From the NCBI GenBank assembly GCA_037441705.1, contig JBBIRR010000018.1, positions 1-64,000 on the forward strand: a stretch of DNA of 64,000 nucleotides, read 5' to 3'. The stretch's first letter is position 1. Every line of letters begins with the position of its first letter. The notes under the pieces are model-generated. The model was not told where the DNA came from. It saw nothing but the letters and a program-made list of their open reading frames with translations, and ran no database searches. Shown here in pieces: positions 12,504 to 18,472 of this stretch. Position numbers and translations under genes: made by a program. Source of the stretch: Ignavibacteriales bacterium. Lineage in GTDB: Bacteria > Bacteroidota > Ignavibacteria > UBA10030 > UBA6906.

Positions 12504-14057
<1,554 letters not shown>

Positions 14058-14188: not shown

Positions 14189-14262
<74 letters not shown>

Positions 14263-14347
14263 CTCCATTAGGCGGTGCGACGAAGGCTCTGCGTTTAGAA
14301 GGCATTCCTTCCATTCTTATCAATTTGGTTCGTATCGCCCGAGCTAC

Positions 14348-14420
14348 GGGGCTGTAGCTCAGCTGGGAGAGCGTCTGGTTTGCAACCAGAAGGTCAGGGG
14401 TTCGATCCCCCTCAGCTCCA
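14348..14420 (+). tRNA. tRNA-Ala (TGC)
   Basis: Cloverleaf, TCTGG-TTTGCAA-CCAGA, G3:U70 pair. Confidence 0.97.
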
Positions 14421-14439
14421 CAAAACGCGTGTTGGTCAT

Positions 14440-14514
14440 GGGCTTGTAGCTCAGCTGGGAGAGCGTGGCGCCTTTGGCGCCAAGGTCAGGGGTTCGATCC
14501 CCCTCAGCTCTCCA
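14440..14514 (+). pseudogene. tRNA-like element: tRNA-Ala duplicate with replaced anticodon arm
   Basis: D arm, variable loop and T arm identical to adjacent tRNA-Ala; anticodon arm is TGGCGCC-TTT-GGCGCCA (no U33); imperfect acceptor stem ending TCCA. Confidence 0.8.
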
Positions 14515-14795: not shown

Positions 14796-17875
<3,080 letters not shown>

Positions 17876-18049
17876 AAGTTTTTGTTGATGCGGAACTGCT
17901 CTTCTCCGACATGCTCTCATCGTCATCGAGGGCCGCGCGGATGAGGGTGCATCAATAAGCTTATGGAAGAGCACAAATAATCAACGTGATGATCGCCTGT
18001 GCGCTTCAACGCGCAGGGCGCTCGATACTCTTCCTCTGTTGTAGAAAAC

Positions 18050-18167
18050 TTCTGGTGACCATAGCGGAGGTGTTACACCCGATCCCATTCCGAACTCGGC
18101 AGTTAAGCCCTCCAGCGCCGATGGTACTGCACTGGCGACGGTGCGGGAGAGTAGGTCGTTGCCAGAG
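18050..18167 (+). rRNA. rrf: 5S rRNA
   Basis: CCCATTCCGAAC, GCCGATGGTACTG, GGGAGAGTAGGTCGTTGCCAG. Confidence 0.97.
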
Positions 18168-18174
18168 TTACTGT

Positions 18175-18214
18175 GAATCCCGTCTTGACGAAAGTTGAGA
18201 CGGGATTCTTGTTT
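18175..18214 (+). terminator. rrn terminator T1
   Basis: GAATCCCGTCTTGAC-GAAA-GTTGAGACGGGATTC followed by TTGTTT. Confidence 0.85.
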
Positions 18215-18336
18215 CTGCCCCGCCACTCAAAACCAACACAGTCCCATCTCGTGGCTCAAGCTTCTCATTCTGCGCATCAGAGGGCATCGCTCAAAGCGCT
18301 CGATGAGGGAGTGGCGCCTGCGGCGCCATGAAATCC

Positions 18337-18398
18337 GGTCGTTGCCAGAGTTACTGTGAATCCCGCCTTCGCGAAAGTTGAGGCGGAATTCTTTTTTT
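18337..18398 (+). repeat. Direct repeat of 5S 3' end plus terminator (T2)
   Basis: GGTCGTTGCCAGAGTTACTGTGAATCCCG repeats 18154-18182 exactly, then a variant hairpin and T7. Confidence 0.9.
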
Positions 18399-18472
18399 GT
18401 TCTCAACCCCCAAAAACATCAAAGCCCGATCTCGTTTATCGGGCTTTGTGCCACCTGGTGTCTGACCTCGAG

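Follow-up and report, generated by a model that had tools for sequence, protein, structure and literature searches.

A tRNA-Ala copy with a hairpin cassette as its anticodon arm in the rRNA operon of an Ignavibacteriales bacterium, and its probable relation to Ssn-like GIY-YIG nucleases

The stretch of DNA analysed here (the window) comprises positions 1 to 64,000 of contig JBBIRR010000018.1, assembly GCA_037441705.1, from an Ignavibacteriales bacterium, and contains an rRNA operon with two ordinary tRNA genes, tRNA-Ile(GAT) and tRNA-Ala(TGC), in the spacer between 16S and 23S rRNA. Nineteen nucleotides after tRNA-Ala, on the same strand, starts a third tRNA-like element, here called pseudo-tRNA-Ala, in which the anticodon arm is replaced, 17 nt for 17 nt, by the hairpin TGGCGCC-TTT-GGCGCCA. 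This hairpin, the cassette, the loop triplet of which varies among copies, recurs in the 23S rRNA, behind the 5S gene and, in related genomes, in tRNA-gene copies next to genes for small GIY-YIG proteins. In what follows the genome is denoted G000, its assembly being a draft of 92 contigs with one assembled rRNA operon; G-numbers refer to the genomes of its order, of which 277 were compared, C-numbers to contigs and L-numbers to extracted loci.

When pseudo-tRNA-Ala is aligned with the adjacent tRNA-Ala, the D arm (positions 8-26) is identical in 19/19 positions, the variable loop in 5/5 and the T arm in 17/17, so that the swap is exact and its flanks agree in 41/41 positions. In the anticodon arm the agreement is 5/17, in the 5' acceptor strand 5/7 and in the 3' acceptor strand 6/7. 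By this comparison, the three segments of full identity derive from tRNA-Ala. Taken together with the three bases upstream of it (CATGGGCTTG...), the 5' acceptor strand is nearer to tRNA-Ile than to tRNA-Ala, and differs from the tRNA-Ile context by a single base.

In a decoding tRNA the anticodon loop is 7 nt long, has U33 and carries a purine in position 37. The arm of pseudo-tRNA-Ala, UGGCG-CC-UUU-GG-CGCCA, is a 7-bp G+C stem with a UUU triloop, in which C32-G38 and C33-G37 can pair, and position 33 is a C. With the loop closed and U33 missing, it follows that the element is predicted not to decode. A decoding tRNA also has a 7-bp acceptor stem followed by a discriminator base, and here, in the register of the Rfam model, the stem has a C4-C69 mismatch and a G1-U72 pair. 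The elbow formed by the D and T arms is present, and the covariance-model score for RF00005 is 45.7 bits, above the gathering score of 29 and below the scores of the two real spacer tRNAs (Table 1). ARAGORN labels positions 14440-14513 as tRNA-Lys(ttt). A genuine tRNA-Lys(TTT) with the loop CUUUUAA is found at C36:15838-15910 of G000, a tRNA-Lys(CTT) occurs elsewhere too, and the 47 tRNA calls made by ARAGORN in this genome amount to a full single-copy anticodon set, from which follows that pseudo-tRNA-Ala is not needed to complete it. These comparisons support the view that pseudo-tRNA-Ala is a supernumerary, non-decoding tRNA-Ala copy, chimeric and Ile-like at the 5' end. A scan of the spacer with Rfam at low threshold gave chance-level matches only (tmRNA_permuted, mascRNA and YrlA; E 0.02-0.3).

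The element carries an encoded CCA at 14512-14514. Its 3' acceptor strand has a 2-nt insertion, CAGCTC[TC]CA versus CAGCTCCA in tRNA-Ala, and the triplet is most simply the C72-A73 end of tRNA-Ala, displaced by this insertion. The homologous spacer copies in G014, G060 and G211 end in ...CAGCTCCA, with no CCA behind. A preliminary description of this DNA, made from its letters only, had proposed a third tRNA-like gene with the D arm, variable loop and T arm of tRNA-Ala, a 5' context like that of tRNA-Ile, and a 7-bp stem with a UUU triloop and no U33 that would preclude decoding, and in all these respects it was borne out. It had also foreseen that automated tools might miscall the element as tRNA-Lys(TTT), as ARAGORN does, and had asked for a tRNA score, which from Rfam is above gathering. 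The encoded CCA to which it drew attention is there, but appears to be a side effect of the insertion and is not conserved.

Similar elements are found in the spacers of relatives. A T-loop followed by a cassette after tRNA-Ala occurs in 4 of the 15 tRNA-Ala-to-23S spacers that could be extracted (G000, G014, G060 and G211), which belong to two families. The copy in G014 keeps the tRNA-Ala acceptor stem whole, G3-U70 and A73 included, and has a 4-nt loop and a score of 47.4 bits. Those in G060 and G211 have degenerate 5' halves and score below the Rfam threshold, the G211 spacer holding three units, one of them with a compensatory stem variant. In a metagenome-assembled genome (MAG) of Bacteroidota (L099, 47-122, minus strand) an Ile-like pseudo-tRNA with a TTT-loop cassette lies 56 nt after the spacer tRNA-Ile; its 5' half is degenerate too, and it is likewise below threshold. 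Two other spacers from the same genus, G006 and G007, do not have the element.

These copies bear on the proposal that the element is a plain decaying duplicate or an artefact of assembly, in favour of which one may point to the damaged acceptor stem and to a draft of many contigs with a single assembled operon. An assembly chimera is argued against by the comparable elements after tRNA-Ala in three other assemblies, and decay by the nature of the arm, which is a conserved cassette rather than a set of scattered substitutions; we find the proposal highly improbable. The preliminary description had named a decaying duplicate as one possibility, and the part that stands is that the element is an extra, non-decoding tRNA-Ala copy; what decay leaves unexplained is an anticodon arm that recurs as the same cassette in copies of tRNAs of six isotypes. 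An assembly chimera, which it had named as one thing that would refute it, is not borne out, and the conservation among related spacers that it asked for is seen in G014, G060 and G211 and is missing in the same-genus genomes G006 and G007.

Inside G000 the cassette is confined to a particular kind of sequence. The 17-nt pattern TGGCGCCNNNGGCGCCA has three matches in the window, where 0.00 are expected from 100 shuffles, and the strict form TGGCGCC-NNN-GGCGCCA occurs five times in the whole genome, every time in stable-RNA genes or their copies. Three of the five are those of the window, in the spacer element, in 23S rRNA and past the 5S gene (Table 1), and two are in repeat units that resemble tRNA-Pro and lie where contigs C5 and C9 end, next to a tRNA-Pro(CGG) and an open reading frame (ORF) of 83 aa. 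Other triloop hairpins with stems of at least 7 bp also recur in G000 (ACACGGC 14 times, CCGCTCC 12 times and CCGTCGC 10 times), and may be further repeat families.

The copy in 23S rRNA is the same 17-mer as the one in the spacer and forms a helix tip, which from its E. coli-like flanks we take to be that of helix 68 (no tool names the helix). In G000 the tip reads UCA-[cassette]-GAA, and in G007, G014 and G060 there is a shorter, ordinary hairpin of GNRA type. The cassette with its 3' flank was found in 1 of the 277 genomes of the order, G000 itself, and since many of the drafts are without assembled rRNA, the tip counts in the others as not found rather than as absent. A second tip, CGATGCC-TCT-GGCGTCA, is diverged and still paired in the manner of the cassette. 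At the same site (23S position ~1346) the same-genus genome G007 has a perfect TGGCGCC-TCT-GGCGCCA (C18:128155-128171), and the tips of G014 and G060 are short and ordinary. To judge from these tips, the genus seems to have acquired one of the two earlier and the other recently. In an alignment of 23S rRNA from four genomes no large insertion specific to G000 was seen, and the excess length of this 23S over the Rfam model is a feature of the clade. The idea that pseudo-tRNA-Ala mimics a 23S hairpin was dropped, because in G014 and G060 the 23S tip does not track the arm of the pseudo-tRNA; the tips at that site are GCC-GCAA-GGC and UCCGC-GCAA-GCGGA, respectively. A further tip near the 3' end of 23S rRNA (17761-17776), GGCGCC-GAGA-GGCGCC, has a 4-nt loop and no T...A closing pair, unlike the cassette, and G014 and G060 have unrelated tips there.

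The copy past the 5S gene stands just before the second unit of a direct repeat. The first unit, 18154-18247, consists of the last bases of 5S rRNA, the terminator hairpin and downstream sequence. Since Rfam at E <= 1 finds no 5S match in 18168-18430, the duplicate is only a 94-nt repeat of the 5S end and terminator; a weak similarity with gaps, located farther upstream, is given no weight here. The duplication (18154-18430) leaves two consecutive terminator-like hairpins behind the operon. The cassette is thus found at duplication junctions in two places, in the tRNA-Ala pair, with 92-nt spacing, and in the repeat of the 5S end, with 183-bp spacing.

Table 1. Features of the rRNA operon in the window and of the cassette copies within and behind it.
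Feature	Position	Strand	Remarks
16S rRNA	12505-14051		window rRNA operon
tRNA-Ile(GAT), real spacer tRNA	14189..14263	+	ARAGORN; Rfam 71.6 bits
tRNA-Ala(TGC), real spacer tRNA	14348..14421	+	ARAGORN; Rfam 71.0 bits
pseudo-tRNA-Ala	14440..14514	+	tRNA-Ala copy, Ile-like 5' acceptor strand, cassette for anticodon arm
cassette TGGCGCC-TTT-GGCGCCA, 17 nt	14466..14482	+	occupies positions 27-43 of pseudo-tRNA-Ala, i.e., the anticodon arm
23S rRNA	14796-17876		window rRNA operon
23S helix tip CGATGCC-TCT-GGCGTCA	16141..16157	+	diverged, still paired, cassette-like
23S helix tip TGGCGCC-TTT-GGCGCCA	16826..16842	+	same 17-mer as spacer cassette
5S rRNA	18051-18167		window rRNA operon
cassette TGGCGCC-TGC-GGCGCCA	18312..18328	+	8 nt before second copy of 183-bp-spaced direct repeat
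second direct-repeat copy	18337..18430	+	79% identical over 94 nt to 18154-18247

How the cassette is distributed outside G000 can be seen in two scans. When the order was searched with a pattern consisting of the D-stem flank GAGCN followed by the cassette, 37 of the 277 genomes matched, as compared with one match for the reversed control; two of the 37 (G208 and G253; loop GGA, GGCGTC) look like chance matches in coding-like sequence. The matches adjoin real tRNA genes on the same strand, for Pro(CGG/TGG), Ala(TGC/CGC), Val and Asp. In the second scan, of one genome per GTDB species, 85 stretches matched, 80 of which were returned as loci, with 146 cassettes. Most of the 85 stretches bear titles of Ignavibacteriota, Melioribacter, Ignavibacterium, Bacteroidota and Chitinophagales and a few those of other phyla, and viral contigs gave 0 matches to the cassette pattern. 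A real tRNA gene lies within 600 nt on the same strand in 59 of the 80 loci (34 Pro-CGG and 12 Pro-TGG; also Ser, Ala, Asp, Ile and Val), and a GIY-YIG ORF within the same distance and on the same strand in 46. The usual order is tRNA-Pro, ORF and cassette, the last beginning 0-5 nt, typically 5 nt, past the stop codon.

In these loci the stem of the cassette is fixed and its loop triplet is free, occurring in 25 kinds in the 80 loci, and the TTT-loop 17-mer identical to that of the spacer is present in 36 of 177 loci. Copies of six tRNA isotypes carry it, Pro, Ala, Val, Asp, Ser and Ile, and in every case read it is an exact 17-nt substitute for the anticodon arm, placed between D-stem and variable loop. 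When the flanks of a pseudo-tRNA are compared with its own neighbouring tRNA and with tRNAs of the same anticodon elsewhere, the neighbour is the best match in 65 of 68 cases on the 3' side and in 61 of 68 on the 5' side (of 82 pairs, 14 that had no comparators were left out). From this follows that the tRNA part is local and the cassette universal. The spacer element has both marks of this family of hairpin-cassette pseudo-tRNAs, being a copy of its neighbouring tRNA and having the conserved triloop hairpin for an arm. Most members of the family are truncated halves, have an insertion in the T loop, or belong to 79-299-nt tandem arrays with ORFs. Arrays of partial pseudo-tRNAs that lack an ORF occur in L048 (G097:C2), L066 (G246:C75) and L148; they include one of 16 copies spaced by 118 nt, one spaced by 79 nt that follows tRNA-Ala(CGC), and an 8-kb locus that holds 19 cassette matches. 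In a Melioribacter MAG (L090, 5568-5642, minus strand) a tRNA-Pro-like gene of full length, with the cassette and the whole of its acceptor stem, stands by itself behind a terminator, and ARAGORN labels this copy, too, Lys(ttt).

Consider now the case in which the hairpins have nothing to do with each other, so that GGCGCC triloop hairpins arise time and again as favoured, stable helix tips of the structural RNAs of this lineage, and the pseudo-tRNA arm, the 23S tips and the hairpin after 5S are separate in origin. Such convergence would be in keeping with the 23S tips of relatives, which are already GC-rich (GCGCC-GUAA-GGCGC in G007), with the additional tip at 17761, and with the real tRNA-Ala, the own arm of which folds closed in silico. 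It would have to account for an identical 17-mer in pseudo-tRNA-Ala and the 23S tip, where shuffles give 0.00, for the same stem in copies of six tRNA isotypes in distant genomes and in a context of low G+C, and for a reversed pattern that matches once while the true one matches in 37 genomes. We therefore hold separate origins to be very unlikely.

The ORFs next to cassettes encode single-domain GIY-YIG proteins of 78-89 aa, for which PF01541 is the only family above the Pfam cut-off (E 4e-14 to 5e-17). The 83-aa representative in G000 (C5:339-587) lies beside tRNA-Pro(CGG) with its cassette-bearing tRNA-Pro copies. A second GIY-YIG ORF of G000 (C7:3820-4059; L156, G000:C7:3300-4600) is 43% identical to the first; it is preceded by the 3' end of a tRNA of Ser/Leu type and by a terminator, and a hairpin with a stem of at least 6 was not seen beside it. 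Of the 277 genomes, 207 have homologues at E <= 1e-8, which frequently stand in tandem with pseudo-tRNA units. In L155 (G141:C2:364800-369156) at least 14 tandem units of GIY-YIG ORF and cassette-bearing 3' pseudo-tRNA-Pro follow each other at ~299-nt spacing up to the contig end, and the small indels in many of these cassettes may be real decay or long-read error.

If the cassette is the cognate site of the nuclease, the type of hairpin should change with the protein. In 20 loci picked by protein similarity alone, which is a small sample with seeds from cassette loci, a hairpin of TGGCGCC type is present in 7 of the 9 loci with an ORF at E <= 1e-34 to the seed profile (5 exact and 2 paired variants) and in 0 of the 11 that score weaker, 8 of which carry other triloop hairpins (among them TCCGCC, TGCGCC and TCAGCC) in pseudo-tRNAs. 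From 7/9 versus 0/11 follows that the type of hairpin goes with the nuclease clade, as it would for a cognate site. In distant GIY-YIG clades (L159, L161 and L163, from G058, G190 and G046) the pseudo-tRNAs have anticodon-arm hairpins with stems of 11-12 bp, and a second small hairpin, TCCGCC-NNN-GGCGGA, is inserted in the T loop.

The position of the cassette, starting 0-5 nt past the GIY-YIG stop codon in dozens of loci, also bears on which enzyme it belongs to. Repetitive extragenic palindromes (REPs) and the mosaic elements built from them (BIMEs) go together with REP-associated Y1 transposases (RAYT/IS200-like), and share with the present system that short, dispersed, GC-rich palindromes flank a gene for an enzyme acting on single-stranded DNA. 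They differ in the enzyme family, and in that REPs are extragenic whereas this cassette lies within copies of RNA genes. G000 does have two Y1_Tnp genes, but both their loci carry hairpins of other sequence and neither carries the cassette. RAYT was rejected as partner on this ground, and we give an assignment of the cassette to it next to no credence.

A closer parallel is found in the Ssn nucleases, which, according to Chenal et al. (2025; PMC11893778), bind sequence-specific triloop hairpins (NTS/SRM) flanking their own genes and cut single-stranded DNA, with a requirement for the stem sequence and none for the identity of the loop. The likeness extends to the protein, a tiny single-domain GIY-YIG (94 aa for SsnA and 78-89 aa here), to a gene flanked by a hairpin with conserved stem and free 3-nt loop (here in 46 of 80 loci and with 25 triplets), to different hairpins for different nuclease clades, and to solitary hairpins scattered in the genome. 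It differs in that the hairpin here is embedded in tRNA-gene copies as their anticodon arm and in 5S and 23S contexts, and in that there are 1-5 copies per genome in this genus, as against hundreds in Ssn systems. On our side the likeness is one of sequence, and the cutting of single-stranded DNA by these nucleases is putative.

The other parallel is SegB of phages T4 and T6, a free-standing GIY-YIG homing endonuclease in a tRNA gene cluster (PMC2330249), the nuclease activity of which is required for tandem amplification at a tRNA locus by homologous recombination (PMC13096335). SegB shares with the present case a GIY-YIG gene amid tRNA genes, and sets a precedent for the present arrays and local duplicates; it differs in that it recognises, in double-stranded DNA, a motif in the T loop of real tRNA genes, and in that neither a companion hairpin cassette nor a pseudo-tRNA is described there. 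SegB is also larger and has a DNA-binding part, whereas the proteins here consist of the catalytic domain only, and the cassette, as said, is not matched in viral contigs. Small mobile GC-rich hairpins in variable regions of rRNA and near endonuclease ORFs are, finally, known from fungal mitochondria as GC clusters or double-hairpin elements, but these are organellar, have other sequences and are not known to show a precise swap of an anticodon arm.

We consider it fairly probable that an Ssn-like GIY-YIG nuclease has the cassette as its cognate hairpin and that the spacer element is a solo copy, which would have arisen through break-stimulated duplication and short-patch conversion. The class of solo copy is assigned because there is no ORF in the spacer. 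The comparisons show how the element is built, where the cassette occurs, its association with GIY-YIG ORFs and with real tRNA genes, and its copies in 23S rRNA and behind 5S, whereas the specificity of the nuclease, its mode of action on single-stranded DNA, the gene conversions and the fate of the RNA are here modelled on the Ssn nucleases and SegB. According to this scheme, a nuclease clade that resides at tRNA genes, mainly tRNA-Pro, in Bacteroidota of Ignavibacteria type would recognise the hairpin when it is extruded in single-stranded DNA. Breaks near the hairpin would be repaired through recombination with nearby homologous RNA-gene sequence, with tandem partial duplications and short-patch gene conversions as outcome. 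By conversion the cassette would reach other terminal hairpins that have short stretches of homology at their borders, for which (A/C)GCG and ARGTC would serve in tRNAs, UGGCG in 5S and GCGCC...GGCGC in the 23S tip. In the spacer, tRNA-Ala would have been duplicated locally, the duplicate would have recombined in part with tRNA-Ile at the 5' end, and its 17-nt anticodon arm would have been overwritten by the fixed hairpin TGGCGCC-NNN-GGCGCCA. The resulting copy would be transcribed with pre-rRNA. Because its acceptor stem is damaged and A73 is displaced, the RNA is probably not well charged, and an RNA that would neither decode nor be charged efficiently would be a tolerated passenger.

Several observations weigh against this scheme. 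There is no GIY-YIG ORF in the rRNA spacer, the shared cassette being the only tie between this locus and the nuclease. At the level of genomes, 35 of the 37 with a cassette have a GIY-YIG homologue, which is weak evidence, since with homologues in 207 of 277 genomes overall the association is uninformative, and G007 has a perfect 23S cassette with no GIY-YIG match at E <= 1e-8. Most loci of the scan over GTDB species were ascertained through the cassette itself. As regards membership among the Ssn proteins (CDD cd10448), an NCBIfam scan of the nuclease gave no family above cut-off, and the solved structures nearest to it are those of UPF0213 proteins (E 6e-5) and of SLX1. Contigs of four RNA runs (24 listed, each with at most 0.10 of the sampled words) gave the conserved tRNA-Ile and tRNA-Ala only and nothing usable over 14440-14514. 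Stem variants that keep pairing (TGGCGCT...AGCGCCA in G211 and G004) fit a hairpin in RNA as well as one in DNA, and the full-length copies that pass the Rfam threshold in G000 and G014, together with the full-length tRNA-Pro-like copy of L090, leave room for a function of the RNA.

Such a function would be that of a non-decoding, tRNA-like RNA, freed from pre-rRNA by the tRNA-processing enzymes and with its decoding shut off by the hairpin. It might act as an additional site for processing, as a decoy that engages tRNA-binding proteins or, in genomes such as G014 that keep the Ala acceptor intact, as a carrier of alanine outside translation. Intact D and T arms with scores above gathering in two genomes speak for it, as do the G3-U70 and A73 retained with the full acceptor stem in G014, for alanyl-tRNA synthetase ignores the anticodon. 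So do spacer copies in 4 of 15 spacers from two families, the stand-alone gene of L090 and the compensatory stem variants. What makes us regard a functional RNA as unlikely, though a good deal less so than separate origins, is that the element is missing from the same-genus spacers of G006 and G007, that its acceptor stem is damaged in G000, and that the copies of G060, G211 and L099 are degenerate in their 5' halves and score below the Rfam threshold. The family, moreover, is made up mostly of halves, of copies with T-loop insertions and of arrays with ORFs, and its stem is conserved as a sequence, beyond what mere pairing would ask for. In silico, the cloverleaf of pseudo-tRNA-Ala lies 12.7 kcal/mol above the predicted fold of minimum free energy, compared with 2.1 for the real tRNA-Ala.

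Going beyond the cognate-hairpin reading, one may tentatively regard the hairpin as a selfish unit of the terminal hairpins of stable RNAs, a possibility that we rate as less than even. The Ssn-like nuclease would then act on tRNA and rRNA genes under very strong transcription, on the non-template DNA in its single-stranded state, and repair would copy the cassette into tRNA anticodon arms, the 5S hairpin and 23S tips. The spacer copies would be abundant non-decoding tRNA-like RNAs, some of them, as in G014, perhaps alanylated. Since the cassette copies include one in working 23S rRNA, the ribosome itself would, if this is so, carry the element.

For the annotation of genomes the consequence is that this operon will be listed by pipelines with a tRNA-Lys(TTT) that is spurious, and relatives with tRNAs that are likewise false or marked '???'. 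A literature search found no published description of hairpin cassettes in anticodon arms or of such elements in rRNA operons, and the rRNA-operon setting of a hairpin-cassette pseudo-tRNA appears, on that search, to be new. The main text of PMC11893778 contains no occurrence of tRNA, rRNA or Bacteroid, and its supplementary data might list such homologues; the present element would connect the newly described hairpin-specific single-strand DNA nucleases of the Ssn type to tRNA and rRNA genes, a link that this main text does not mention. With a protein of 83 aa and a hairpin of 17 nt, it would also offer a simple assay system for the role of these nucleases in cells. As a drop-in replacement for an anticodon arm, the hairpin would turn off decoding in a tRNA duplicate while keeping its length. 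The same hairpin in a functional 23S tip may, finally, be a concrete and recent example of how a selfish element remodels the tips of rRNA and the tRNA content of the spacer.

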